A stretch of DNA of 64,000 bases from Candidatus Kapaibacterium sp. (lineage in GTDB: Bacteria; Bacteroidota; Ignavibacteria; Kapaibacteriales; UBA2268): assembly GCA_963665665.1 (NCBI GenBank), contig OY762428.1:1920001-1984000 (forward strand), written 5' to 3'. Of the stretch, positions 5,451-19,153 are shown in pieces. How positions within the stretch are numbered: the stretch's first letter is position 1; every line of letters begins with the position of its first letter. Under the pieces are notes generated by a model, which saw only the letters and a list, made by a program, of their open reading frames with translations, searched no databases and was not told the DNA's origin. Made by a program: the position numbers and the translations under genes.

Positions 5451-6098
5451 TCATATTTTAAACCTGTAATAGCAATTAATCATATAAAGGTCGGGAACAT
5501 AGCTCGTGCTGCTGCAACCAGCCGGGCAAAAATGAAAATCAAACATCCTTCTGTAAGTGAGAGAAAGTTGAAAGCGTTTATTAAGCCTGTAATATACAGC
5601 GCCGCCGAAATCCAGGTCCCTATAATCATTATCGCTTGCAAACAGAGGGAAGCCAAAGTGAAGTGAAAGCCTGACCGGCCATTCCCGGGGCAACAGATAT
5701 ACTTTTGGGGCAAGAAAGACAGCCCACGCTGAATAGATGTCAGAAGAAACATGAGTATAAGTACTAAGATTATACTCTTTGGCACCCTCTCTTTTTGCGG
5801 CATACCAGTTGTGGCCGTATATTTCGAAAGCGGCATAGTGAGATGAAAACACCGGTATTTCGAAGCCCAGGGCGGCCGCTATTCCGGCTTTCATTGTCCT
5901 GCCGTAAACATCCTTATCATTTGCTATACCAAGTCCGGCGATTGCCACAAGGTAGTAATCATCAGGCAATATTTCCGATGGCCTTTTCTGCGGCTCCGTT
6001 TTACGGAGTTCTGATAATGTCTTCGGGGCATCGCCGGTTTCCCGGGAAAAGGAACAGCCGAACCCAAAAAAGAATATGGCAATTACCATGAATTTCAT
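5451..6098 (-). CDS. Outer-membrane beta-barrel-like protein, paralog of 4555-5166
   Basis: Signal peptide, NWYAAK motif, C-terminal CYYRFKI. Confidence 0.7.
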   Translation of the reverse strand: MKFMVIAIFFFGFGCSFSRETGDAPKTLSELRKTEPQKRPSEILPDDYYLVAIAGLGIANDKDVYGRTMKAGIAAALGFEIPVFSSHYAAFEIYGHNWYAAKREGAKEYNLSTYTHVSSDIYSAWAVFLAPKVYLLPREWPVRLSLHFGFPLFASDNDYRDLDFGGAVYYRLNKRFQLSLTYRRMFDFHFCPAGCSSTSYVPDLYMINCYYRFKI

Positions 6099-8125
6099 TT
6101 TATTAACTTGTAATAATAAATTTTATTTGTTTTTGTTTTTACAACCACAATACCAGGCTGTTGGGTTAAATTTGAATACATATCCTCTACAGAAAGACAG
6201 GTGCCGGTTAAAATGCCATCAATGGAGTATATGTTAATTGATTCAATATCTAAGGAGTTGATATCAGGCAATCTATCCGGAGTTCCGGAATAATTTAATT
6301 CTTCTACCGAAGTAACTTTGTCACATTTCCAGAGTCTGCCTCTATCATCAAGGTAATAGACAATATTATCAATATTAATTATTTCATAAATTGATCGAGG
6401 ATTGGTCGCCACATGGATTGGAATCTTTGTAATATCAGTTAATTGCACATCATCAATATCTTTTACAAAATATATATTTTCATTGGCAGAAACTAACAAG
6501 TCGTCTCCATATTTTTCAAAACACCCAGTTGCATAAAAAAAATCTATTCGTCTAAATAAAATATTTTCAATTTCAAGATTTTCAGAATCTATTAGTTGAA
6601 TATCACTTCCACGCGGATTTATGATTAAATCATTACCATTGAACAAATATGAATTGGTTATTATATATTCGTGATATATTGGATTGTCCAGGTTTTTGAT
6701 TTCGTTATTATAATCATATGAACATAGATTGAAGGTATTACCCTCTATTCTCTTAAAAAATAAAATTTTATCATCAGTAGCTTTTATTATACGGAAACAT
6801 TTATCCACATAATATCCTCTAAGAATTTCCAAAGAATTGAAATCCAGTTCCATAACACTATTTTCTGTTGAACACCAAATCGAATTCGTTGAAGAGGAAT
6901 AATGTATACTTGAAAGGGTTTCTCCGAAATCATGTTTTAGTGATAAATTATTTTCAATATCATAAATAACAATCTGATTTGTGATTTCCTGATAGATAAG
7001 ACCTCTGGGATAAACAGAATAAGCGTTTTGAGCTGATATATATATATAATTTAATGGTTCGTTATCAACGGTTTGTATCAACATTCTTGGCGGATCAGAA
7101 TAATTTTGATTATAGAGAATTCCGAGATAACCGTTAATGTTAATCATTGTTCTCGGACATGTTATATTGCTCATATTGATTAAGTATTCTGCCTTACCTT
7201 CAATGATGGTATAAATACTCGGCCCAATAGAATAAACAATTTGGGAATTCCCATAAATATGTAAAGCCAAAGTGCCAATATTTGCTGTTTCTTTTGTTTC
7301 AAGGTTGTATGTATTTACTTCTCTGTTCTCATCACGATAATATATCAGGTTGTCTTTGAATCCAATTTTAAAGCTAAAGTAATATCCTGTCGGGACTTCT
7401 GTTTCTTCTTTTTTGTTTACATCATAAATATGCATTTTGGAAAACGATCCGTTTTCATAATATCGGAAAATGATATAATCATTACCATTGTAGCGATAAT
7501 GATAAAAGTCTTCTAAATCTATGGATGTTAGCTCTTTAATCAATTTGAGCTCGCCGTTAATGAATTGATAAACATCACTGTTCCTTAACAAAATGAAAAG
7601 GTTGTTTTCATCAACAGCAAATACTTTTTCAATTGTAGAGCCGTCAGGCAATGAAAAGAAATCGGAATATTTTTTCAGGGTTTCTTTGTTTTTATAATCA
7701 TATAGGATAATATGATAGTTGCTGTAAAATAATAAATTATCGTTGCAGTAGATAATTGACTTAAAGCCTTCTAATCTCGGGTCCTGATAAATTCTCCTTT
7801 CATTTGTTTCATAATTCAGATATAATATCTTATCTTCACAAATTGATAACCATAAGTTGTTCTCATCATTCAGGCATGAGCCACCCCCTAAGTTCAATAC
7901 ATCGTCATCAATATCTTTGAAAAGAAGATAATTAAAGTTCATAATCAATTTATTTTTTCGAAATAACCAGACTTCATCGCCAGCATTGACTTCGACAATA
8001 CTCTCATCCGCATTTACTGAATTTGAACGTAGTTCAGCCGAAGGATATACAGACACTAATTCGCTTCCACGGGATTGAATAATTGCGGAAAAAAGTATAA
8101 GCAGAATAAATATTGATCTTTTCAT
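6095..8125 (-). CDS. Secreted beta-propeller-like protein with degenerate T9SS-type CTD
   Basis: Signal peptide; repeated short beta strands; C-terminus INIYSIDG...PGIVVVK...KLIK. Confidence 0.7.
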   Translation of the reverse strand: MKRSIFILLILFSAIIQSRGSELVSVYPSAELRSNSVNADESIVEVNAGDEVWLFRKNKLIMNFNYLLFKDIDDDVLNLGGGSCLNDENNLWLSICEDKILYLNYETNERRIYQDPRLEGFKSIIYCNDNLLFYSNYHIILYDYKNKETLKKYSDFFSLPDGSTIEKVFAVDENNLFILLRNSDVYQFINGELKLIKELTSIDLEDFYHYRYNGNDYIIFRYYENGSFSKMHIYDVNKKEETEVPTGYYFSFKIGFKDNLIYYRDENREVNTYNLETKETANIGTLALHIYGNSQIVYSIGPSIYTIIEGKAEYLINMSNITCPRTMININGYLGILYNQNYSDPPRMLIQTVDNEPLNYIYISAQNAYSVYPRGLIYQEITNQIVIYDIENNLSLKHDFGETLSSIHYSSSTNSIWCSTENSVMELDFNSLEILRGYYVDKCFRIIKATDDKILFFKRIEGNTFNLCSYDYNNEIKNLDNPIYHEYIITNSYLFNGNDLIINPRGSDIQLIDSENLEIENILFRRIDFFYATGCFEKYGDDLLVSANENIYFVKDIDDVQLTDITKIPIHVATNPRSIYEIINIDNIVYYLDDRGRLWKCDKVTSVEELNYSGTPDRLPDINSLDIESINIYSIDGILTGTCLSVEDMYSNLTQQPGIVVVKTKTNKIYYYKLIK

Positions 8126-8354
8126 TTTGGGCTTACTCCGTTTTTAATAATTAAAGGTAATATAAAAAGTGTTCGAAGAATACAATATACAAAAACTGTA
8201 TAAGAATAGAACAATTACCATGAATTTCATTTTCCTGAATATTTCACTGCCTTCCACTTTTTTTTTGCCCCCATCCTATAAAGCGCTTCATTGGTAATTC
8301 CTTACGTTTTAATCGTATATTTAGTAATAGCGCTTGCCAATAAGCATATATATA

Positions 8355-9017
8355 CTAACGGATTATTTGATTCATAACTTTTTGTATCAGCCCGTAAGGG
8401 ATTTTAAAGTGATTCTCATTTCCCCATAAATCTATAAGTAGATTCTCCGGCTCGGAATTTGGCTCCCATGAATCGCTTTCTTCGTGATTATCCGCATAAA
8501 TGCCATTTCCAAGATTGTAACCGTAGTTGAATTCTGTTACCCAGGGGAAAAGGCATGTCAAATCTTCTTTTTCACCTTCAATATAAATGATCGCCCTGTT
8601 GGAAACAAAGCCAATAACAGGTTCTTCAATATGGCTGGATATTTTTCCCGTGGGGAAATCCTTATCCACCAAAAGAATAAACCCGGCCCCCAATGATGAA
8701 GGCGGCATGTTGGTACAAGCCAGTGTTGGCGGATAATCTTTGAATTCAACCAGGAAGGTCATATTTTCCCAATCGATATCTCCTTCGCCCCAAACAAAAA
8801 CATGATCCTCGGCTGATACGGTTACAGCCCATGCAATCACTACCTTAGCGTCAGGTGGTATATCCCGATTGTTGGGATTTTGGATTTTGCCGGATACTTT
8901 ATAAATAACTTCTTTAACATCGTTATTGTTGTCATCGTCATTTTCGGTAATAGTGGTTGCATCGTTGCAAGAAATCAAGGTAATGATAAGAACTAATAGA
9001 ACTGATATTTTCTTCAT
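8355..9017 (-). CDS. CxDATT-family lipoprotein (group A body)
   Basis: Lipobox LISC-NDATT; SGKIQNPNNRDIPPDAK motif. Confidence 0.8.
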   Translation of the reverse strand: MKKISVLLVLIITLISCNDATTITENDDDNNNDVKEVIYKVSGKIQNPNNRDIPPDAKVVIAWAVTVSAEDHVFVWGEGDIDWENMTFLVEFKDYPPTLACTNMPPSSLGAGFILLVDKDFPTGKISSHIEEPVIGFVSNRAIIYIEGEKEDLTCLFPWVTEFNYGYNLGNGIYADNHEESDSWEPNSEPENLLIDLWGNENHFKIPYGLIQKVMNQIIR

Positions 9018-9036
9018 ATTTTATTCCTCTGTTAAA

Positions 9037-9636
9037 TTAAAACCAATATGGAAAAGAGGGCATTGGATTATCCGCAATTAATTGTATCAATAAATTGTTT
9101 TTATCATCATACTGTTCCCAATACCCGTTAACTTCATCGGTATAAACTGCCGAAGCAAAATTATAGCCATTTTTGAAAGAAGCAGTCCATGGAAGAAGAT
9201 TTTTTAGTTCGCTTCTGTCGCCGGCAATATAAATAATTGCCCTGTCCGACAAAAAACCTAAATAGTCGTCTTCATTGGGCTCGCTGAATTTTCCTTTTGG
9301 AAAGTCATTTGTTACAAACATTAAATAGCCGACTGCAATCTGCGCGTTGCCAAAAGTATTAATCACTTCCTGGTCAGGTATGGATTCCATGGGTATTTTG
9401 AAAGATAGATCGGAAAAATTTATATTAAAATCTCCGCTGGAATAAAGGTACTGTTCGGAATTATCAATAACAAGCCATACCAGCGCTAATTTACTATCGC
9501 CGGGAACGGAGCGGTTATTGGGGTTTTCAATCTTACCTTTTAAAACAAACATATCAGCGTCAGGGTCTGTTGTCGCATCATTGCACGAGAACAAAGAAAT
9601 AGAGCCGAAAAGGAATAATATTAGGAGCTTCTTCAT
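9037..9636 (-). CDS. CxDATT-family lipoprotein (group A body)
   Basis: Lipobox LFSC-NDATTDP; GKIENPNNRSVPGDSK. Confidence 0.8.
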   Translation of the reverse strand: MKKLLILFLFGSISLFSCNDATTDPDADMFVLKGKIENPNNRSVPGDSKLALVWLVIDNSEQYLYSSGDFNINFSDLSFKIPMESIPDQEVINTFGNAQIAVGYLMFVTNDFPKGKFSEPNEDDYLGFLSDRAIIYIAGDRSELKNLLPWTASFKNGYNFASAVYTDEVNGYWEQYDDKNNLLIQLIADNPMPSFPYWF

Positions 9637-9694
9637 TTACAAACCTTCTTTTATATCCAATTAAAATCATTATTTACCTGATGAATAATACACT

Positions 9695-10465
9695 CTAATT
9701 CTTCACATTAAAGGGATAATAGTAGCTGTTGCCGTTGTTGGAATATTTCATGATATAAAAGCCGTTATCAAGATCCCCGCCGTTGAATGAATAAACTTGT
9801 GGTCCGACAGGATATACTCCGCTATATACTGTTTTTACATTAGTAAATTCCGAATCTGCTTTATGTATGCTTACCATTAATGGATCGGTACTTTCTACCT
9901 GATATTGTATCGTTCCCACTTCTTTAACCGGTTGTGGCCTAATAGCCATATTTGATTTTTGTTGTGTCAGGTCAAAAACAAGCTTTGTATCATAGTCGTC
10001 CATCAAATTGAGATAGTAATTGCCACCTTCCATCCAATCCGGCGCTATTCCGTATTTGTAAAGGAACCTGTCCTTGTCCTGGTAAATCAGATCATATTCA
10101 AGAACTGTGAATGTATCGGTTTCGAAAGTAATTTCATCGCCTATCGAGGCCCGTATTTTGTAATTGATATTTTTTTCGGCATTAGAAAATACAAAGAAGC
10201 CGTCCAGAGTATCAGAGGACTTTGTATTAGTTGTGGCTGCTATATTACCGCCTTCAATCAGTTCCAGCTTAATATCCGAAAACCCCTTATACTGCAAATA
10301 ATTACCTACAAATTGGCCGTTGTCCAGTATGGAGTCGCATTTGAAAGTTATCAGCCCGATAATATTGATACCATTATTTTCGCTGTTATCCGGTTTTGTA
10401 GTTGCATCAGGGCAGCCCGCCAATGCAAACATGCATAATAAGATAATAATTGATAGTTTTTTCAT
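9695..10465 (-). CDS. CxDATT-family lipoprotein with T9SS-CTD/FlgD-Ig-like C-terminus
   Basis: Lipobox LAGC-PDATTKP; C-terminal IRPQPV...IQYQV...LDNGFYIMK. Confidence 0.75.
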   Translation of the reverse strand: MKKLSIIILLCMFALAGCPDATTKPDNSENNGINIIGLITFKCDSILDNGQFVGNYLQYKGFSDIKLELIEGGNIAATTNTKSSDTLDGFFVFSNAEKNINYKIRASIGDEITFETDTFTVLEYDLIYQDKDRFLYKYGIAPDWMEGGNYYLNLMDDYDTKLVFDLTQQKSNMAIRPQPVKEVGTIQYQVESTDPLMVSIHKADSEFTNVKTVYSGVYPVGPQVYSFNGGDLDNGFYIMKYSNNGNSYYYPFNVKN

Positions 10466-10474
10466 GATATTTTT

Positions 10475-10879
10475 TTATTCAGTTATTGAAATATTTTTAT
10501 TTACTAAAGAAGTTTGGCCCTTATTTTCAACCATTGCAGTAATTTGAACATCTCCCGCAATTATTGCTTTAAAGGCCGATATTGCAGAATACCTGTTATC
10601 ATCTTCCGAGCTGTTTGTAGTAAAACTTATAGCCATTTTCCCAATATCGTTGTTGGCATATTTGTATTCAATTTTAACATCGGCATATACGAGTTTTTTG
10701 TTTGATTGAATTTCTACAATTATTGAATCCTGGATTGAAAAACTTGATTTGTTCGTTTTTTCAGAATCGAGATAGGTAAGAATTCCGATTTCAAAATCTT
10801 GTTCCGGATTTGTTGTAGCATCATCACATGAAATTATTGCAAACATGCTTAATAAGATAATAATTGATAGTTTTTTCAT
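10475..10879 (-). CDS. CxDATT-family lipoprotein (small Ig-like body)
   Basis: Lipobox IISC-DDATTNP. Confidence 0.75.
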   Translation of the reverse strand: MKKLSIIILLSMFAIISCDDATTNPEQDFEIGILTYLDSEKTNKSSFSIQDSIIVEIQSNKKLVYADVKIEYKYANNDIGKMAISFTTNSSEDDNRYSAISAFKAIIAGDVQITAMVENKGQTSLVNKNISITE

Positions 10880-10904
10880 TGTATTCTCTTAGTACTATGT
10901 ATTT

Positions 10905-12080
10905 TCAATATTCCCACAGGGGCTTCTTAGATATATGCCAACCTGTTCCGTTATCAGCTTCCACCAAAATTTTCCCGTCATCTGTTGATAAAATTAACGG
11001 CTTCCAATACATATCAAAAAACAATACCTGCTCTTTTGTTTGTCCATTATCTGATGATTTGTAAAAACCTTCGGATTTCACGGAATCTGCCTCGATTTCT
11101 GTTCGCACAAAGTATATATTGTTTGTATTGTCCACATCAATATAATCCAAATTACAGTTGTTGTCCGGATTATTATTATCCAAATATTGTATGTCCCGTT
11201 CATCCCATATTATGCCACCATCCGAAAAATAAGTAGTTGATCCGACTTTCGGTATATACGCCCATTGTCCGTTCATGCATTCTTTAACTGTAAATGATTC
11301 ATCAGGATAATGGTCATAATTTATTCCACTTACATTCTCAAGAGATTTTGATGTCATATTGTCAGAGAAATAAAATCCCTTATAAGTAAATATTATCAAC
11401 TTATCGTTTATCATTTCCATTTCACATCCAAATATTTCACTGGTTTTCTGCCATTCGGCGCTGAATGATTCCTTATAAAATAAATCATACCAGCCCGCTC
11501 CGAGATCCACCGAAATTAAAATTTCCCCCTTATTGTTTACAAAACCGTTATTGATCTTATAAACTATCTGCTTTGGATTGCTTGCCGTCCAGATGACAGG
11601 CATATCGATACTTATCCATTTATTACCATTTGCATTGTACATAACAATACAACTTGAGTCGCTAATTTCCGCAGAAGAATTATTTACAACATTCCTGCCG
11701 AAGATATAATACATATTATCATTCTTGTCTTTAGCAAATTTCCTGAAATAAATACCGTATTCTTCTGAACTTGTATATTTCAGCGGTTTTTCAATAGTGG
11801 TTTCCCATGTTGAATTAAACTCATCAAATTTGTAAATGTATAAATCCCGGTCTCTCTTTTTATCATCATTGTCAACTCCGTTGCCCCAAATTTCATCATT
11901 TATTTTTGTTACTGAAATAATATTTTTTTCACACTTTATCGCTGTAAAATTGTTTAGAATTTCAGTTTCATAGTCATAGCCGTATAAATTATTATCATTA
12001 TCATCAGGAGTTACTGTCGCATCTTCGCAGGAAATAAATGCAAAAAAAGCAGATAGAAGAATGATGGATATTAGTTTCAT
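10905..12080 (-). CDS. CxDATT-family lipoprotein (BNR/Asp-box propeller-like body)
   Basis: Lipobox FISC-EDATVTP; Asp-box-like YFSDGGIIW and YKSSDNGQT. Confidence 0.75.
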   Translation of the reverse strand: MKLISIILLSAFFAFISCEDATVTPDDNDNNLYGYDYETEILNNFTAIKCEKNIISVTKINDEIWGNGVDNDDKKRDRDLYIYKFDEFNSTWETTIEKPLKYTSSEEYGIYFRKFAKDKNDNMYYIFGRNVVNNSSAEISDSSCIVMYNANGNKWISIDMPVIWTASNPKQIVYKINNGFVNNKGEILISVDLGAGWYDLFYKESFSAEWQKTSEIFGCEMEMINDKLIIFTYKGFYFSDNMTSKSLENVSGINYDHYPDESFTVKECMNGQWAYIPKVGSTTYFSDGGIIWDERDIQYLDNNNPDNNCNLDYIDVDNTNNIYFVRTEIEADSVKSEGFYKSSDNGQTKEQVLFFDMYWKPLILSTDDGKILVEADNGTGWHISKKPLWEY

Positions 12081-12103
12081 TTCGTCACCAGTTATTATTA
12101 TTA

Positions 12104-12751
12104 TTAATTTTTCGGTTTCCAGTCGGGATAACGTTTTTCATTTTCATCCCAAAGCTTGCCCAGGTCAATTACAATATCAGATTCTGAACTGCTTATGCTC
12201 CAGCCTTCCAAACCTGTTTGAGCATTTGTTGTGTAATCGGCGCTTCCCAAACTAAAGCCTGCTGAAAATCTATCTACCCAGGGCATTGACATACTGATAA
12301 TTCCTTTTTCTCCTTCTATAAAGATCAAAGCATTATCTGTTACCGTACCAATTTTCGCCCCATAGATGTCGTTCCAGGAATCATATTTGCCGAGTGGATA
12401 ACTTTCCTTAACAAGCATAATATATGCAACCCCGAGTTTCCCGGAATTATAGGCGTTAATACATGTATCTGACGGTAACTCACTAAGGTCAATATGAAAA
12501 GTCATATCTGACTTATTAAAAGTACCTTCATGAGAAACCCAGGCATAAGACGGAGATGCTTTATATACATGCCACAACAGTACTGCTTTAGCATCCTCAG
12601 GGATAAAATTTTTATTTGGATTTAATACCTTTCCACTGATTTCTTTCAGATTCTCCCAAGTGTTTGTTTTAGGGTCAGGTTTTGTAGTAGCGTCCTTGCA
12701 GCTAATGAATGCAAAAATGCCGAGAAAGAAAATGATTGATAGTTTTTTCAT
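12104..12751 (-). CDS. CxDATT-family lipoprotein (group A body)
   Basis: Lipobox FISC-KDATTKP; SGKVLNPNKNFIPEDAK. Confidence 0.8.
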   Translation of the reverse strand: MKKLSIIFFLGIFAFISCKDATTKPDPKTNTWENLKEISGKVLNPNKNFIPEDAKAVLLWHVYKASPSYAWVSHEGTFNKSDMTFHIDLSELPSDTCINAYNSGKLGVAYIMLVKESYPLGKYDSWNDIYGAKIGTVTDNALIFIEGEKGIISMSMPWVDRFSAGFSLGSADYTTNAQTGLEGWSISSSESDIVIDLGKLWDENEKRYPDWKPKN

Positions 12752-12762
12752 GCTAATTCCTT

Positions 12763-13392
12763 TTATTTCCAGTTTGGAAATTTAATTTTAATATCATCAG
12801 TTTGGTCTTCTTCTAACATTAGTTCAATGTTATCAGTATCCGAATCAGGAATCCAATTGTCATGAACTTCGTTTGTATAAACACCTTCAGCCCAGTTGTA
12901 ATTCTCTGCCATATCATTTAGCCAGGGGTAATATTCCACAAAATTAGTCATATCTCCTGAAGTAAATATTATAGAATGACTTGAAACCGCTCCAATCAAT
13001 TTCGGGGCGTGTATTTCATCATCCCAGACACCTGTTTGAAAATCTTTTTGAACCAGAAATAAATAATTTACGCAAAAACTATTATTTCCATCAAGAGTTA
13101 ATGATAACGAATCCGGAATTGTCGATAAATCAACATCAAAAGACAAATTTGATTTTTTAAATTCAAACTCTCCCCATGTGTAAGCATAATCTCCGTTATT
13201 TTCTGATTGAACTAATGAATATAGAACAATTTTAGCATCGGTTGGAATATCCCTGTTGTTTGGATTTAATACTTTACCGCTTATTTTGAATAAGCTTCTA
13301 TCACCATTGTTGTTAACGGGACTTGTTGTTGCATCATCACAGGAAATGATTATAAAAAGGCTTAATAAGAATAAAATCGATAGTTTTTTCAT
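12763..13392 (-). CDS. CxDATT-family lipoprotein (group A body)
   Basis: Lipobox IISC-DDATTSP; SGKVLNPNNRDIPTDAK. Confidence 0.8.
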   Translation of the reverse strand: MKKLSILFLLSLFIIISCDDATTSPVNNNGDRSLFKISGKVLNPNNRDIPTDAKIVLYSLVQSENNGDYAYTWGEFEFKKSNLSFDVDLSTIPDSLSLTLDGNNSFCVNYLFLVQKDFQTGVWDDEIHAPKLIGAVSSHSIIFTSGDMTNFVEYYPWLNDMAENYNWAEGVYTNEVHDNWIPDSDTDNIELMLEEDQTDDIKIKFPNWK

Positions 13393-13443
13393 AGTTTGTT
13401 TCCTTGAGATTAGAAGTAAAAAATTTATTTACAATATTCTATC

Positions 13444-13575
13444 GGAGCTGTCCCAAAAATTCGAAAAGCTATTATTCTGAGTGCAGCGAAGAATCAATAA
13501 CCCGCATGAATACTGGATTCTTCACTTCGTTCAGAATGACAAATCGTAAAATATTTCATATCATAGAGACATCAC
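13444..13575. repeat. MITE/REP-like palindromic element, copy A
   Basis: Ends ctgtcccaaaa...gagacatc; inner arms ttctgagtgcagcgaagaatc / gattcttcacttcgttcagaatgac. Confidence 0.75.
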
Positions 13576-13588
13576 CTATTTTTTGTAC

Positions 13589-14773
13589 CTAAAAATTCAG
13601 CATAATTCCATAGTTCAAACTGATCTTGCCCGATAATTCATAGTTGCCGTTGTACCTGTATCCAAGTGCCGAACCTTCAATGGCAGCATAGAGTTTGATA
13701 ATTGTTTCCGGTTTCCAGATCAGGCCCAGCCTGGTTTTTACAAAAGGCCCAACGTTTGTTCCGCCTATGATGTTTTCAGAAAAGAATAAAACTGTCGGCA
13801 TTTTTTCATAATCAGCAAACTCATGCTTATATTTTAAGCCATATAAATTAAGGGATTTATTCAAATTCAGCTCATCGTTCCGGGCAATAAAAATATCATA
13901 GGTTTCCCTGCCCGCTTCAAATCCAAGGTAATCATTCTCATCCAGTTTCAGGCTTATTCCTACAGTGAAATTATTCAGGGTGTTGTCGAAGCTTGCGATT
14001 TGCAGCCTTTTCGGGAAAAGGTATATTCCTGTAATATTCGAGCTTGAAAGTTCAAATCCTGACAGAAAGCGCAATAAACCGGATTTCTTTTTGCCAATTA
14101 TGCCCGGCTCATTAATTGTGAGAGTAGCAGCATTGATAAAGTCAGTATCATTATATGTATAGCTGCCAATTGGAATGTTATTATTTTCCATTGCGATGTA
14201 TGCAATTTCAATTTCAGGGATTTTATCTACAGGAACTTCTTCATTTTCAATTTTTTCCGAAATGGTTTCATTTTTACTTAGTGAAACAATGCTATTTTCA
14301 ATAAATCTCTCTTCCTTTACCTTAGCAACAGGAGAGGAATAAGAAATCATCTGATCATTTTGCGATTTTGCTTTTTCTTCAATTGCCTTGGCTTCAATAT
14401 TATTTTCCGGCAGTAAAGTTGCATATTCCAGCGTAACATTTGAAGCATTCGAATCCTCGTCGGATAGAATTCCGTTGGCAAGGAATCCAAGGATAAACAC
14501 TGAAGCGAATATGCCGAATCTGAGTAAATAGGAAAGAATTGGCCCGGACTGATATATCCCTGCCGCCTTAAACAGTTTGGATTTACTGCTGGCATCAGGC
14601 ACAGCACGAATATTATCTTTAACAACCCCATTGTGGAACAGCATAAGCTCATGGAACTCATCCTGAAGCTCAGGGTTCCCGGCCAGGCCGTTAAACAGTT
14701 CCGACCTTTCGCCGGGAGTTGTTTCGCCGTCTTTAAAAACGTATAGCAAATCTATTAGTCGTTCATTTTCCAT
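13589..14773 (-). CDS. Anti-sigma factor, probable dual-membrane-spanning type
   Basis: Downstream of ECF sigma; N-terminal DGETTPGERSELF (Cys-less anti-sigma-like); TM at about residues 79-103; Glu/Lys/Ser-rich linker; amphipathic strands ending YGIMLNF. Confidence 0.7.
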   Translation of the reverse strand: MENERLIDLLYVFKDGETTPGERSELFNGLAGNPELQDEFHELMLFHNGVVKDNIRAVPDASSKSKLFKAAGIYQSGPILSYLLRFGIFASVFILGFLANGILSDEDSNASNVTLEYATLLPENNIEAKAIEEKAKSQNDQMISYSSPVAKVKEERFIENSIVSLSKNETISEKIENEEVPVDKIPEIEIAYIAMENNNIPIGSYTYNDTDFINAATLTINEPGIIGKKKSGLLRFLSGFELSSSNITGIYLFPKRLQIASFDNTLNNFTVGISLKLDENDYLGFEAGRETYDIFIARNDELNLNKSLNLYGLKYKHEFADYEKMPTVLFFSENIIGGTNVGPFVKTRLGLIWKPETIIKLYAAIEGSALGYRYNGNYELSGKISLNYGIMLNF

Positions 14774-14873
14774 TTCTAATTCTGCTTAGTAAAAATTACA
14801 AAATGATAATATTATCTGATATTTCTGATAAAGGCCTTCCCACCATATCCGGATGAACGGCTTTAGAAGCTTC

Positions 14874-15024
14874 GGAGGCTGTCTCAAAAGGTAGAATAAC
14901 TGTCATTCTGAGCGCAGCGAAGAATCTATAAACCTCATAAATACTGGATTCTTCACTTCGTTCAGCCTGCCCTCGATTAATCGGGGAATGACAACACACC
15001 AAAATTCTGAATAAAGAGACATCC
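14874..15024. repeat. MITE/REP-like palindromic element, copy B, with 21-nt internal insertion
   Basis: Ends ggctgtctcaaaa...gagacatcc; inner gtcattctgagcgcagcgaagaatc / gattcttcacttcgttcag[insert]aatgac. Confidence 0.75.
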
Positions 15025-15101
15025 AGTGGGGTGGGGTCGGGGAGACTAAAATCAATTAGTTTTCTCAGAATATCTATTTTTGCCAGTAAGCTATTCATTT
15101 T

Positions 15102-15653
15102 TCAACTCGCTTCCGTTTGATAGGATTTGATATATTCCCTGACTTCCCGTTTAGCCCTTACAACCCTGTTGCGCACTGTGCTAATCGGGATATCAAGTAT
15201 ATTTGCAATTTCTTTGTATGAGAAACCTTCAAAAACCTGAAGAATAAAAGCTTCCTTGTGTTCAACAGGAATTTTATTCAGTGCATGTTCAATAATTGAA
15301 TTCAATTCTATGCTTTCCATATTATTTTCAGTACAAACAAGATGCGATTCTTCAAGCTCAACATTTTTTGTTTTCCCGGATCTCCTTCTATTCAGGCATG
15401 TATTTTTTGCAATCCTGAAAAGAAGGCCGCTTATGTTATTTATTTCCCTGTTTTCTTTTATATAAAGCAGAAATTTCATCATAGCCTCCTGGAAGGCGTC
15501 TTCAGCTTCTGTTTTATCTCCCATAAACTTCAGGCAATAAGTATAGATTTGTGAAGAGTACAATTCATACACTCTTTCAAATGCTTTTTTATACTTACCT
15601 TTCCGGATGTATTTTATTATTTCCGTTTCACTATTTTCTGCTTTTATCGCCAT
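15102..15653 (-). CDS. ECF RNA polymerase sigma factor
   Basis: Region 2 AEDAFQEAMMK...LFRIAKNTCLN; region 4 FSYKEIANILDIPISTVRNRVVRAK. Confidence 0.93.
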   Translation of the reverse strand: MAIKAENSETEIIKYIRKGKYKKAFERVYELYSSQIYTYCLKFMGDKTEAEDAFQEAMMKFLLYIKENREINNISGLLFRIAKNTCLNRRRSGKTKNVELEESHLVCTENNMESIELNSIIEHALNKIPVEHKEAFILQVFEGFSYKEIANILDIPISTVRNRVVRAKREVREYIKSYQTEAS

Positions 15654-15664
15654 TCATTAACTAA

Positions 15665-15690
15665 GGCACATTAAAATTCAATTTGTTTCA
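15665..15690 (-). promoter_or_regulatory. Putative autoregulatory ECF promoter
   Basis: Minus strand TGAAAC-N16-TGCC ending 11 nt before the sigma ATG. Confidence 0.5.
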
Positions 15691-15728
15691 AAAATAATTA
15701 AAAAATTATGATGGGGACAAAACTTCTC

Positions 15729-15865
15729 TTGTGAACTATAGCAGCACGGAAAATTTACCTCATTTCCCAAACACTATTCTATCCGTATTATTACCCGCCA
15801 AAGCAGGGGCTTTGGCAGGAGGGGATAAACGATTTCTTCTCTATCCAAGACACCTGCCTGGGATA
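15729..15865. repeat. ~138-bp repeat unit downstream of the NYN gene
   Basis: ttgtgaactatagca...tacccgccaaagcaggggctttggcagg...cctgggata, matching 16714-16925. Confidence 0.85.
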
Positions 15866-15869
15866 ACAT

Positions 15870-16481
15870 CTAATTCCATTCGTTCGGTTTGGTAATCAAC
15901 AGGCCATCTTTTATTAAAAAGGAATGTTCTAATTGGCTGTTTCGTATATTATTTTCACTAATTGTAAAGTAACCATCCGATATATACCTTAATTCAAAAG
16001 ATGACCTTTTCGGAGGAAAAACAGAAATAAATCTTTTTGTCGGAAATAGTTCTTTGGCTCTTCTAATTGCCGGAACAAGGTCGCTATCCCCTGAAATTAT
16101 CAGAGCTGTATCATAGTTATCATTTACAGCATCAGTAAGAATTTCAACTGCAATATTAACGTCTGTTTCTTTCTCCGAAGGTAAATTTATGATGGATTGG
16201 CATTTCGGACATTTAATATGATTGGTATGATATTTTCCAAAATATATTTGAATATTATCTTTCGCCTTCAAAGCTTCAAGATATTTATTCTGTCTTTTTC
16301 TTTTATCTTCAGGATTTTCAATACGGGATGTAAAATACTTTACACTGATTAGTTCCTGCCCTTTTTTCAATAACCTGCAGGACAACTTATACAGATCAAG
16401 CCAATAATATTTCCTGCCATATTTATCCTTTAAGCCAAAATACAGGTTGAATCCGTCAATATATGTAATAACTTTTTTCAT
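15870..16481 (-). CDS. NYN-domain (LabA/DUF88, PIN-like) nuclease
   Basis: YIDGFNLY, EKETDVNIA, ISGDSDLVPA motifs; CPKC insert. Confidence 0.9.
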   Translation of the reverse strand: MKKVITYIDGFNLYFGLKDKYGRKYYWLDLYKLSCRLLKKGQELISVKYFTSRIENPEDKRKRQNKYLEALKAKDNIQIYFGKYHTNHIKCPKCQSIINLPSEKETDVNIAVEILTDAVNDNYDTALIISGDSDLVPAIRRAKELFPTKRFISVFPPKRSSFELRYISDGYFTISENNIRNSQLEHSFLIKDGLLITKPNEWN

Positions 16482-17116: not shown

Positions 17117-19153
17117 ATGGCTTTTAAAAAAATTATATCAATTATATTAGTAGCAATATCTGCTTATTTAATTTTCGGCTGTGCCGAAGAGAATGAAAAT
17201 CTTGTAAACCCGCCCTCGGCAAGCTCACTTATTCAGATCAGGGTTGTAAATGTTAACAGCGACGGGAAAACGAGGAAACTTGATTTTGAAGGGCTTGGCG
17301 AGTCAGGAGAGGCTGCTCCATTTGCATCTACCGATTTAAAGAATCCTCCTGCCGATTCAACTTATGTTACAGTACTTGCTTCGGGAACAGAGGAGTTCAC
17401 CACTTACAAAAGGGAACGTTTCATACGAAACATTTTTTATTCTTATGTTCCGCTTCCCCCACAAAACTCTGCGGATACCAAAACAGATACTCTGAAAAGA
17501 ATACAAAGCTCATCAACAATCCCTGATGACAGTAAATCGGCTTTTGTAAAATTCTTTAACGCATATCCGGATACAACCGTTACTTTTTCAGTCCGCTCGG
17601 GATGCCAGAACGGTTCTGTTCTGATGTATGCAACCGAATACGGCAGCCAGGTGGCAAGCAAGGAAGTCAGGCCCAAAGATTTTACTTTCACCCTGATGAG
17701 ATATAATAAAGCCGACAGCACGGAAGATGTAGTCGGTTTATATAAGATAGATAACCTTGTAGCAAGGGGTCAGTACTCCCTGATCGTAGCAAAAAATGGG
17801 GATAATACTGAACTGTATTTATTGGATCTGATAAATAGCCAACCTCTTGAAAAACTTGAAGCAGAAGTAAACACTACTGCTAATCTGAAAATAATAAATA
17901 TTGCCAAAAGGGATATTGATTTTAAAATTTCCGATTCAACTATCGTAGAAAACCTGCCTGATCAGACATTGAGTAAAAGTAATGAAATAACAGTTTGTGC
18001 ATCGCTTGATATGGACGAGCTAATGACATATACAAGCGGAACTTCCAATACTTTTGGCAACATGATGTATTCTTTCGAAGTTCTGAAAGATTACACTGGA
18101 ATTGTCTATGATTCAACCGGTAATGGCGACGGGGCGCTTATTATGCTGGAACCGATTTACCTTGAAGATGAGATGGGCGATAACGCTATGGTTCGCGTTG
18201 TAAATACTTCCCTGCATAAGGATATGATAACTGTTTCCCTTGGTGCAAGGATAGACACCAACAGCGTTCTTGAATTCAGGGCAGGGGACATATTTGCCGA
18301 ACAATTAAGTTTCGGTGAGGTTTCCGATGCCATGCTCGTAAAAAGCGGTATTGCCCCGATAGCGGTTTTCACAGGATACGACCCCCGGAAATTATTATAT
18401 ACTTCATATAGTAAAATTGAAGCCGGCAAGGAATATATTGTTATTATTACCGACGACGAAAACGGAGATTATGAGTTAATAATGATAGAGGATAAATTTG
18501 AAAGCAATGACCAAATACTGAATCCTCTTGATGAAGGGATTTTCACCCAGGTGATGAATGCCCTGCCGGGAATTGACGAGGTATCAATTTCAATAACCAA
18601 TTCAGAGGGCATCCAGATTGACGGAGCCATTGCTCACCTGACTGAATCACTTACCACTGTAATTCCTCAGGGACAATCCACTATCAATATAAACGGTAAC
18701 CCAATTGAAGTTGAAGCCGAGGCAGGCAAAAGGCTTATGATTATTGCTGCGGGCCATCCGGATGATATTGATTTGCTGGAATTTAAGTATAGTCCCATTA
18801 CTTCCGATATATCGCAATTGCGGAGAAGATACATAAACGCATCAACGGGCGTTGCCGAGATGAGTGTAAAAATCAATTCCAATGATACTTTAACAGATCC
18901 TGAGGTTGATTATATTTCTTACAGTCAGAGTTCAGGAATAGTCAGTATCGACAGAGATGCAAAAATATCAATGTTCTTTATAGACGCAATTCTGGATGAG
19001 CAGGTGAAACATGACCCTGATGCAGAAGTACGCGAAAGTTCCACGAAAGCTATGCTGGCAGACATCAGCCTTCCATTGGGCAAAGGCTATACTATCATCT
19101 TTTTCGGCGATGAGGAAAACGGTTATAATGCCGTTATTCAGCAGGAATTTTGA
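17117..19153 (+). CDS. Lipoprotein with repeated DUF4397-like domains
   Basis: Lipobox IFGC; repeated IRVVN / VKFFNA / VRVVNT / RYINAS strand motifs. Confidence 0.7.
   Translation: MAFKKIISIILVAISAYLIFGCAEENENLVNPPSASSLIQIRVVNVNSDGKTRKLDFEGLGESGEAAPFASTDLKNPPADSTYVTVLASGTEEFTTYKRERFIRNIFYSYVPLPPQNSADTKTDTLKRIQSSSTIPDDSKSAFVKFFNAYPDTTVTFSVRSGCQNGSVLMYATEYGSQVASKEVRPKDFTFTLMRYNKADSTEDVVGLYKIDNLVARGQYSLIVAKNGDNTELYLLDLINSQPLEKLEAEVNTTANLKIINIAKRDIDFKISDSTIVENLPDQTLSKSNEITVCASLDMDELMTYTSGTSNTFGNMMYSFEVLKDYTGIVYDSTGNGDGALIMLEPIYLEDEMGDNAMVRVVNTSLHKDMITVSLGARIDTNSVLEFRAGDIFAEQLSFGEVSDAMLVKSGIAPIAVFTGYDPRKLLYTSYSKIEAGKEYIVIITDDENGDYELIMIEDKFESNDQILNPLDEGIFTQVMNALPGIDEVSISITNSEGIQIDGAIAHLTESLTTVIPQGQSTININGNPIEVEAEAGKRLMIIAAGHPDDIDLLEFKYSPITSDISQLRRRYINASTGVAEMSVKINSNDTLTDPEVDYISYSQSSGIVSIDRDAKISMFFIDAILDEQVKHDPDAEVRESSTKAMLADISLPLGKGYTIIFFGDEENGYNAVIQQEF

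Follow-up and report, generated by a model that had tools for sequence, protein, structure and literature searches.

Seven lipoprotein genes arranged in tandem in the genome of a marine Bacteroidota-type bacterium begin with the same leader, a type II signal peptide followed by a conserved peptide after the lipidated cysteine, and continue into bodies that are only in part related by sequence. These genes, designated g1 to g7, occupy positions 8355-13392 on the minus strand of the window, the 64,000-nucleotide stretch analyzed here (positions 1,920,001-1,984,000 of genome G000, a single contig of 5.46 Mb with 38.6% G+C). The leader belongs to this locus, and neither to a protein family nor to the lipoproteins of the organism in general. 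The locus is part of a Dma-type module, in which a sigma factor is paired with a dual-membrane anti-sigma factor, bodies have been exchanged at the leader, and codon usage argues firmly that the leader peptide is under selection. The best explanation, and probably the correct one, is a module-specific leader and tether that doubles as a recombination site for cassette exchange. An initial annotation of this DNA had offered cassette shuffling and a lineage-specific surface-export signal as readings of the shared leader. The former stood, and the latter was not supported as a general signal; the annotation had recognized neither the sigma/anti-sigma module around the array nor the old age of the motif as a trait of the module's ancestral lipoprotein family.

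One leader on seven lipoproteins

The seven open reading frames (ORFs) are separated by gaps of 9-58 nt. Each starts with MK(K)L/I, a hydrophobic stretch, and a lipobox, followed in 7/7 by C-x-D-A-T-[T/V], or C-[NNPDEKD]-D-A-T-[T/V] with the second position written out. The motif spans positions +2 to +8 after the lipidated cysteine in all seven genes, with an invariant aspartate at +3 and a proline at +8 in six of them (threonine replaces it in g1), while g5 has valine at +6 and hence reads D-A-T-V. The following 10 or so residues are mainly acidic or polar, and the shared leader is about 26 residues long. It is encoded at 8943-9017 in g1, 9559-9636 in g2, 10388-10465 in g3, 10802-10879 in g4, 12003-12080 in g5, 12674-12751 in g6, and, together with the tether, 13315-13392 in g7. 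Residues 17-29 of the g7 model made with AlphaFold 2 (AF2), from the lipobox cysteine onward, have a predicted local distance difference test (pLDDT) score below 50, so the motif and the residues after it are predicted to form a flexible tether. An O-glycosylation sequon was also considered for the motif and rejected: D-A-T-T has no S or T directly after D and does not fit D-(S/T)-(A/I/L/V/M/T), which we take to be that sequon.

The similarity is also visible in the DNA. The leader segments 10427-10465 of g3 and 10841-10879 of g4 are identical at 38 of 39 nt, and the starts of these two genes at 41 of 42 nt across 14 codons; given the codon usage of the genome, the chance of identical codons at their 12 shared residues is about 2e-5. 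Four copies of the 14-mer GATAGTTTTTTCAT lie in the window, where g3, g4, g6, and g7 begin, and the whole genome has five; none of 100 shuffles of the window gave a match. An independent repeat search returned a 43-nt family with exactly seven copies, located at the seven gene starts, and an 84-nt family with four copies, at four of the same starts. Identity of the leader DNA begins at the ATG, and the seven genes have unlike sequences in the 30 nt before it, so that there is no shared upstream box. All three observations with which the initial annotation began, namely C-[NPDEK]-D-A-T-[TV] after every lipobox, near-identical leader DNA in g3 and g4, and a sequence recurring at four starts, were reproduced.

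The motif is confined to one locus. A six-frame translation of the genome contains nine matches to C.DAT[TVSI], seven of which are the array genes; no signal peptide precedes the remaining two. A regular expression for type II signal peptides retrieved 220 candidate lipoproteins, 213 of them outside the array, and C-x-D-A-T, present in 7/7 array genes, is absent from all of these 213. The same genome carries a second tandem array (G000:C1:802227-805248), consisting of four lipoprotein genes that share a CDDSPSGP start and have paralogous bodies, 32-45% identical.

The bodies range from 108 to 365 residues, and Pfam and NCBIfam models run on all seven proteins gave nothing above any cut-off. 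Four genes, g1 (8355-9017), g2 (9037-9636), g6 (12104-12751), and g7 (12763-13392), are paralogues with 30-35% identity (blastp E values of 1e-21 to 6e-38) and are referred to as A-type. The other three, g3 (9695-10465), g4 (10475-10879), and g5 (10905-12080), have no blastp match below an E value of 0.1 to the A-type proteins or to each other once the leader is removed, and a profile of the four paralogues aligns with them over residues 1-33, 1-28, and 1-31 only. Judged by sequence and profile comparison, their bodies are therefore without similarity past residue 30 or so, in agreement with the initial division into four paralogous and three unrelated bodies.

The AF2 model of g7 (pLDDT of 81.4 and predicted template modeling score of 0.76) has an all-beta sandwich as its body. 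Foldseek gave no match to this model at an E value of ≤1e-3, the best being EMC7 (5.9e-3), and VIA-align also placed the lumenal domain of EMC7 first, with a Z score of 5.9. These matches indicate a common predicted beta-sandwich only, and no NigD-like or other specific relative appeared. The nearest relatives of the g6 body are G008_a and G127_a, with 39-40% identity.

The orphan bodies were harder to place. For g5, a lipoprotein of 391 amino acids, a word search of 5.8 billion proteins found the protein itself as the sole match, and 121 family genomes provided one outside match, over an 83-residue stretch (E value of 1.6e-4). Its nearest clusters by language-model features are BNR/Sortilin-type propellers (score of 0.91), which gives a lead toward a propeller-like fold. 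For g4, of 134 amino acids, the sole match in a word-indexed protein search was likewise itself; the 121 genomes yielded leader matches and two weak partial matches (E values of 5e-5 and 2.7e-4), and the best score in the ESM Atlas, 0.83, was uninformative.

The g3 body, referred to as C3-type, has a C terminus resembling the C-terminal sorting domain of the type IX secretion system (T9SS). Two full-length paralogues with other leaders are encoded at G000 807118-808724, and full-length homologues are present in 10 other genomes. The C-terminal 85 or so residues of g3 match the C termini of large proteins, three of which exceed the Pfam Por_Secre_tail cut-off of 27 bits with scores of 48.6, 37.2, and 30.9 bits; the g3 paralogues reach 25.9 and 16.2 bits, and for g3 itself this model gave no match at an E value of ≤1. 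The labels that had initially been given to the bodies therefore stand in part: the g3 C terminus is probably related to sorting domains, g5 resembles a propeller in its language-model features only, and g4 has no assignable fold. The g3-type family, found at window positions 9695-10465, at L109 219-968 and 1076-1825, and at L070-L078, pairs a type II signal peptide with a T9SS-sorting-related C-terminal domain, which is unusual. Most of its members are single genes unlinked to sigma factors.

The sigma/anti-sigma module

Directly upstream of g7 and on the same strand lie the genes for an anti-sigma factor (13589-14773) and a sigma factor (15102-15653). The latter is a Das-like sigma factor of the extracytoplasmic function (ECF) class, with Pfam scores that all exceed the cut-offs (Sigma70_r4_2, 54.2 bits; Sigma70_r2, 45.1 bits; Sigma70_ECF, 31.2 bits); among NCBIfam models, Sig70_bacteroi1 (102.9 bits; cut-off, 126.4) and sigma_PG0214 (97.4 bits; cut-off, 130) stayed below theirs. 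The Dma-like anti-sigma factor has 394 residues and was recognized from its AF2 model, built on 21 homologues, and from Foldseek. The model comprises head helices at residues 2-52 (pLDDT of about 85-92), a membrane helix at 80-102, a disordered stretch at 100-234, and eight strands at 240-393 with pLDDT mostly above 90. Its best matches in the PDB are eight-stranded outer membrane barrels, namely NspA, Ail, the transmembrane domain of OmpA, the N-terminal domain of OprF, and OmpW, with E values of 4e-5 to 7e-4. The protein is accordingly predicted to consist of a cytoplasmic head, one membrane helix, a disordered tether, and an eight-stranded outer membrane barrel. Sequence searches were less informative: Pfam gave no match at an E value of ≤0.01 for any of the 21 homologues (OMP_b-brl_2 included), NCBIfam assigned no family to the 394-residue protein, a PDB sequence search with the profile gave nothing below an E value of 0.9, and a scan of metagenome contigs with the alignment gave 337 pattern matches, of which none was confirmed.

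The predicted architecture is that of the Dma proteins of Bacteroides, described in 2024, which have a cytoplasmic head, a membrane helix, a disordered tether, and an eight-stranded barrel and sit beside ECF21 sigma factors (PMC10927553, PMC13088901). There too a lipoprotein gene or a gene of unknown function adjoins the pair (Dma1-Das1 with BT_4719; the Dma2 operon BT_1557-1559), and the neighbors NigD2 BT_4719 and BT_1557 are among the genes most induced when the anti-sigma gene is deleted; the available portions of the two articles do not name the signals or direct partners of Dma, nor do they describe an array of the present kind or a conserved N terminus of the partner (PMC10927553, PMC13088901). 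The present protein, without a Pfam OMP_b-brl_2 match, is likened to Dma by architecture and not by sequence, and its partner is a seven-gene array with one leader instead of a NigD-family protein. The NigD model NF051862 scored 13.2 bits on g4 (cut-off, 60) and did not match the other six array proteins; it found nothing over its cut-off in the whole genome, while the control, B. thetaiotaomicron, was matched. Pfam NigD likewise had no match to the array proteins at an E value of ≤1.

Close orthologues of the anti-sigma factor (E value of ≤1e-40) occur in five of 130 family genomes, that is, in G000 and four genomes of one sister genus, and the sigma-anti-sigma order is kept in all five loci. 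The sister-genus arrays read [A, A, C3], [A, Y, C3], [A, Y-truncated], and [Y], where Y is a further body class. The five genomes contain 16 lipoprotein genes in these modules, which fall into five body classes by blastp, and all 16 carry C-x-[D/P/E]-A-T-[T/V]; those of the sister genus, one to three per module and of three body classes, read C-x-[D/P/E]-A-T-T-x-P.

A putative promoter precedes the sigma gene, where all five orthologous loci share the block TGAAACAAA..TTTAATGTGCCTT a short distance before the start codon. This block is a candidate sigma-dependent promoter of ECF type, GAAAC-N15-GTGCC, at 15665-15689 on the minus strand. It ends 11 nt before the start of the gene, and an mRNA made from it, if it is a promoter, would therefore be nearly leaderless. 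The pattern GAAAC-N14-17-[GT]GTGCC matches the window at this site only and the genome at eight sites. A scan of metagenome contigs with a pattern derived from the promoter gave two matches, both on contigs without any related gene, and a scan of 8000-16200 for sigma-70 promoters and terminators gave nothing usable, with six terminator-like sites where 5.8 were expected.

The module also contains an 88-nt element, in two copies, that resembles repetitive extragenic palindromic (REP) sequences, at 14878-14965 between the sigma and anti-sigma genes and at 13447-13534 between the anti-sigma gene and g7. They are 85% identical and have an internal inverted repeat; the element has 38 blastn matches in the genome, 29 of them of at least 40 nt, and contig depth at the bins that contain it is 5-12x the baseline. 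Such copies occur in the module of this genome only, the sigma, anti-sigma, and lipoprotein genes of the sister genus being tightly packed. Farther out, the sigma gene is preceded by genes for an NYN-domain protein and a DUF4397 protein (15870-16481 and 17117-19153), and the array is followed by one for a 676-residue protein without a Pfam family (6095-8125).

The module is one of many. The genome holds about 16 pairs of a sigma factor and a Dma-like anti-sigma factor (for example, at loci L095-L108), and in 13 of them a lipobox gene lies directly downstream. The bodies of ten module lipoproteins encoded elsewhere in the genome cannot be aligned (one of 45 pairs at an E value of <1e-3). Over the first 12 mature residues, however, 11 of the 45 pairs have 5-8 identities, and the consensus is C-[ED]-[DES]-[SP]-L-G-[IL]-[DE]-P-x-V. 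A conserved peptide after the cysteine, on a diverged body, is therefore common to such modules in general and not peculiar to the array.

A profile of the A-type bodies without their leaders also retrieved lipoproteins encoded downstream of the sigma/anti-sigma pair in 11 more distant modules, and in an 18-member alignment the cysteine alone is invariant, with the proline at +8 nearly so; many of these members have an extra domain of about 100 residues between tether and sandwich. A search of 1.84 billion representatives gave 683 family members at an E value of ≤1e-3. The wider consensus of the A-type family is C-x-E-S-T-V-x-P. The best 39 (E value of ≤1e-30) include 36 with a lipobox, 25 with a relaxed form of the motif, and 26 with proline at +8. 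The corresponding numbers for the next 111 are 84, 8, and 27, and the background of 213 other lipoproteins of the genome has one relaxed motif and 17 prolines at +8. A scan of genome contigs with the four paralogues gave 45 pattern matches, none of them confirmed. Among 301 genomes of the class, 27 A-type loci were found, one of which has too little upstream DNA to be classified. The motif is present in six of the nine with a Dma barrel gene ≤900 nt upstream and in one of the 17 without, and the genes unlinked to Dma mostly start with CSDDD, CDKDED, or CGDDDD.

These regularities bear on an alternative in which the octapeptide is a handle by which a Dma-like anti-sigma factor recognizes its own lipoproteins, which would dock through it to the barrel or the periplasmic neck and serve as signal inputs or co-sensors. 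The gene order kept in 13 of the 16 or so modules, and in 25 of 40 related loci with room downstream, speaks for this alternative, as do the association of the motif with an upstream Dma gene (6/9 versus 1/17) and the common 12-residue starts of the ten unalignable lipoproteins, which are dispersed and therefore cannot owe these starts to exchange between tandem neighbors. However, contact between barrel and lipoprotein is hypothetical, and the Bacteroides neighbor genes are reported, in the portions of the articles available, as outputs of the regulon and not as inputs (PMC10927553, PMC13088901). Furthermore, the triads were probably duplicated as units, so that shared N termini and linkage may reflect common descent. 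A complex prediction for the barrel region (residues 195-394) with mature g7 (residues 18-209) gave ipSAE values of 0.00/0.00, which is no verdict either way. On balance, we regard recognition of this kind as unlikely.

Exchange of bodies at the leader

The motif codons vary among the seven genes (GAT/GAC, GCA/GCT/GCG, and ACA/ACT/ACC) while the residues are fixed, and these synonymous differences in D-A-T-T show selection on the peptide. They also weigh against neutral homogenization, in which gene conversion between neighbors keeps the leaders alike and the peptide is unselected. The 41 of 42 nt shared by the g3 and g4 starts would be expected from such conversion, and leaders are indeed closer to their neighbors in the same genome than to their orthologues; conversion by itself does not account for fixed residues behind varying codons, nor for the persistence of the motif in other genera and, in its relaxed form, in 25 of the 36 close representatives of the family that have a lipobox. 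A wholly neutral origin of the likeness is very improbable.

Leaders and bodies have different histories. The leader of g3 is 72% identical to that of g4 and 12-21% identical to those of its own body paralogues, and C3-type homologues outside the module start with CE[NS]T.., CDNSTD.., or CNSATE... The C3 genes of the congeneric genomes G008 and G074 are about 99% identical in DNA from around codon 45 and similar from around codon 17, whereas the first 15 or so codons and all upstream DNA are unalignable, the latter because the upstream neighbor differs. G008_a and G127_a have bodies that are 88% identical behind leaders that are 48% identical. Where orthologous bodies are 97-99% identical, the leader starts are 60% identical or unalignable.

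Exchange is also evident between strains. Parts of the stretch are present in nine public sequencing runs, none of them listed as RNA, and the Logan contigs of four of these were compared at ≥85% likeness. A 6790-nt contig of run X4 follows positions 8040-10468 with 96 differences, continues with 1509 other letters, and resumes at 10811-13476 with 5 differences. Other DNA thus takes the place of the g4 body in X4, with one breakpoint in the 9-nt gap between the g4 stop and the g3 start and the other within the g4 leader at codon 23, which encodes the second T of D-A-T-T. The divergence steps abruptly across the g4 cassette, from 96 differences on one side to 5 on the other, a pattern that fits a recombination tract ending there. 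A 341-nt contig of run X7, of about 92% identity, links g4, at its 3' end, directly with the start of g6. Runs X6 and X7 also have a weaker joint (10883->12754), which would place a g4-like start after g7; it has 33 letters on one side, in a stretch where the leaders are alike, and is to be read only as consistent with the X7 joint. The two joints together point to the order g7-g4-g6 instead of g7-g6-g5-g4. Some parts of the array, such as 8436-9903, have no contig cover in X6 and X7, and nothing is inferred from these. Comparison of the array across strains, together with the g3 paralogues behind other leaders and the G008/G074 mosaics, therefore upholds the shuffling of cassettes at a shared leader that had initially been suggested.

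Contigs of runs X1 and X4 also have joints within the 676-residue protein downstream of the array, at 6337-6435, 6483-6789, 7712-7800, and 7925-8040, and these hint at segments that vary or are repeated in the samples. A different kind of switching, by an invertible or phase-variable system, was rejected for the array by the uniform direction of the genes and by the eight array neighbors scanned, none of which is a recombinase or a phage gene.

Simple descent offers another account, in which the seven genes are tandem duplicates whose bodies diverged past recognition while the signal peptide and linker changed slowly. Four of the seven genes are plainly paralogues, and the array at 802227-805248 shows that a leader, CDDSPSGP, can be kept on paralogues 32-45% identical. 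Against this account stand the orthologous bodies that are 97-99% identical behind leader starts that are 60% identical or unalignable, the body lengths from 108 to 365 residues, and the full-length g3-type homologues that have other leaders, both in this genome and singly in other genera. The exchange of the g4 body in run X4, where one breakpoint falls inside the leader, likewise speaks against it. There is accordingly little probability that duplication and divergence explain the array.

According to the explanation preferred here, the seven genes would be an expanded, strain-variable array of lipoprotein cassettes within one envelope-signaling module, formed by the ECF sigma factor and a Dma-like anti-sigma factor that is predicted to reach from the cytoplasm to its own outer membrane barrel. 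The leader would comprise the type II signal peptide and then a short disordered tether, C-x-D-A-T-T-x-P, descended from the N terminus of an ancestral partner lipoprotein with an A-type beta-sandwich and the start C-x-E-S-T-V-x-P. Two processes would maintain it. Purifying selection would act on the peptide, as the synonymous codon differences and the conservation across genera show, and homologous recombination within the leader would place unrelated bodies (C3, Y, g4, and g5) behind one leader and replace, add, delete, and reorder cassettes between strains, as the mosaic breakpoints show. The array may be co-transcribed from the sigma-dependent promoter, and the tether may be a module-specific placement signal, distinct from the general acidic export signal, that keeps the proteins at the outer membrane, on either face.

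Several observations weigh against this explanation or restrict it. The role of the leader peptide is a proposal, the unrelatedness of g3, g4, and g5 is deduced from sequence and profile comparison, and g4 may yet be a very distant homologue of the A-type sandwich. The relaxed motif was defined after inspection of the data and later slightly widened. The motif is missing from three of the nine Dma-linked A-type loci and present in one A-type gene (L122) that does not directly follow a Dma gene. Moreover, the loci linked to Dma are at the same time those most closely related to the array genes, so that the link between motif and module may be one of shared descent alone. In this genome, gaps of 196 and 328 nt with REP-like elements separate the sigma gene, the anti-sigma gene, and g7, and a search of the window found no second copy of the candidate promoter before g7. 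Finally, the strain evidence consists of contigs at ≥85% likeness and not of reads, the X7 contig being only about 92% identical, and the replacement in X4 is defined by the flanks of the 1509 inserted letters.

Comparison with known lipoprotein systems

The initial annotation had also likened the leader to the lipoprotein export signal (LES) of Bacteroidota, and a counterpart of this signal, lineage specific, general, and read by an export machinery, would be a further explanation. The experimentally defined LES has at least two acidic residues, with K-(D/E)2 or Q-A-(D/E)2 as its minimal form, and reads SDDDD or SDDFE in other genera (PMC5080379, as far as its text was available). The array motif resembles it in being a short peptide directly after the lipidated cysteine, located at +2 to +8 and so covering the LES positions +2 to +6, with an invariant acidic residue at +3 and a polar or acidic continuation. 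An export signal shared by unrelated proteins also has a precedent in the leader and 5-residue sorting sequence common to unrelated Erp surface lipoproteins of Borrelia (PMC10016077, available in part).

The composition and distribution of the motif are different from those of LES. Only the aspartate at +3 is fixed, and at least two acidic residues after a polar or positive residue are not a property of the motif: three of the seven genes have two adjacent acidic residues (DD or ED at +2/+3), and four have a single acidic residue within +2 to +5. The genome has its own bias after the cysteine, with S in 58 of 220 candidates at +2, D in 48 at +3, D in 38 at +4, and E in 36 at +5. There are 28 lipoprotein pairs that share at least six of eight residues (the cysteine plus seven), 11 within the array locus and 17 outside it. 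Twelve of the outside pairs have unrelated bodies; their starts belong nearly all to the CSDDD type and lie at scattered chromosomal sites. Such dispersed CSDDD starts on unrelated bodies have the look of a sorting signal in this genome, whereas the array motif is clustered. LES is described, in the accessible text, as acidic, loosely defined, and present on many dispersed surface lipoproteins (PMC5080379), and the array motif consists of a single fixed acidic residue plus A-T-T-x-P and is confined to one module. With 0/213 other lipoproteins bearing the motif, one invariant acidic residue, an adjacent acidic pair in only three genes against a genome-wide S/D/D/E bias, and A-type relatives outside Dma modules that carry CSDDD-, CDKDED-, or CGDDDD-type starts instead, a general surface-export signal was not borne out and is a highly doubtful explanation.

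Closer parallels come from lipoprotein loci that recombine. The Erp proteins of Borrelia burgdorferi (OspE/OspF/Elp, on cp32 prophages) combine one leader and a short sorting peptide after the cysteine with bodies of independent origin, and they recombine frequently (PMC10016077, in the part available). The five body classes found behind one leader among the 16 module genes correspond to this arrangement, by analogy and not by homology. Each Erp locus has its own conserved promoter/operator, and the loci are spread over multiple prophage plasmids of a spirochete pathogen; the genes studied here form one chromosomal tandem array that is tied to a sigma/anti-sigma module, with no phage genes nearby and with a candidate promoter before the sigma gene only.

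In the tandem lpl cluster of Staphylococcus aureus, described by Tsuru and Kobayashi in 2008, a conserved nucleotide stretch in every ORF is the homologous recombination site that rearranges the cluster between strains, and the unit that stays together reaches from the 3' portion of a gene across the spacer into the 5' portion of the following gene (PMC2568036, seen in part). The comparison of G008 and G074 shows an lpl-like unit of this composition. The lpl genes, however, are all homologues with a conserved central stretch, whereas here the leader is conserved in front of unrelated bodies. In the vsa, vsp, and vlp loci of Mycoplasma, too, variable lipoprotein bodies follow a conserved 5' end that codes for the signal peptide; these loci work by site-specific inversion or phase-variable promoters. 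The array differs from these loci in its co-directional genes and in the lack of a recombinase among the neighbors scanned. To our knowledge, the principle of a leader that is both address and recombination site has so far been documented mainly in Borrelia, Staphylococcus, and Mycoplasma. Neither a leader-sharing array on a Dma module nor a conserved N terminus of a Dma partner was found in the open-access titles and abstract beginnings searched.

The array is a clear example of modular envelope-protein evolution in a nonpathogen, and a short, defined lipoprotein address could serve display or secretion tools in Bacteroidota. A module that keeps its partner lipoprotein most conserved beside the lipid anchor also provides a concrete candidate for the partner or signal of Dma. 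It is conceivable, though rather unlikely, that the leader is a portable address of the Dma-type module, such that any body placed behind it would be expressed by the sigma factor, lipidated, held by the octapeptide at the barrel of the module, and read by it. If true, this would be the first identification of a signal sensed by a dual-membrane anti-sigma factor, and it would explain why each of these modules retains a lipoprotein that is conserved only in its first 8-12 mature residues.

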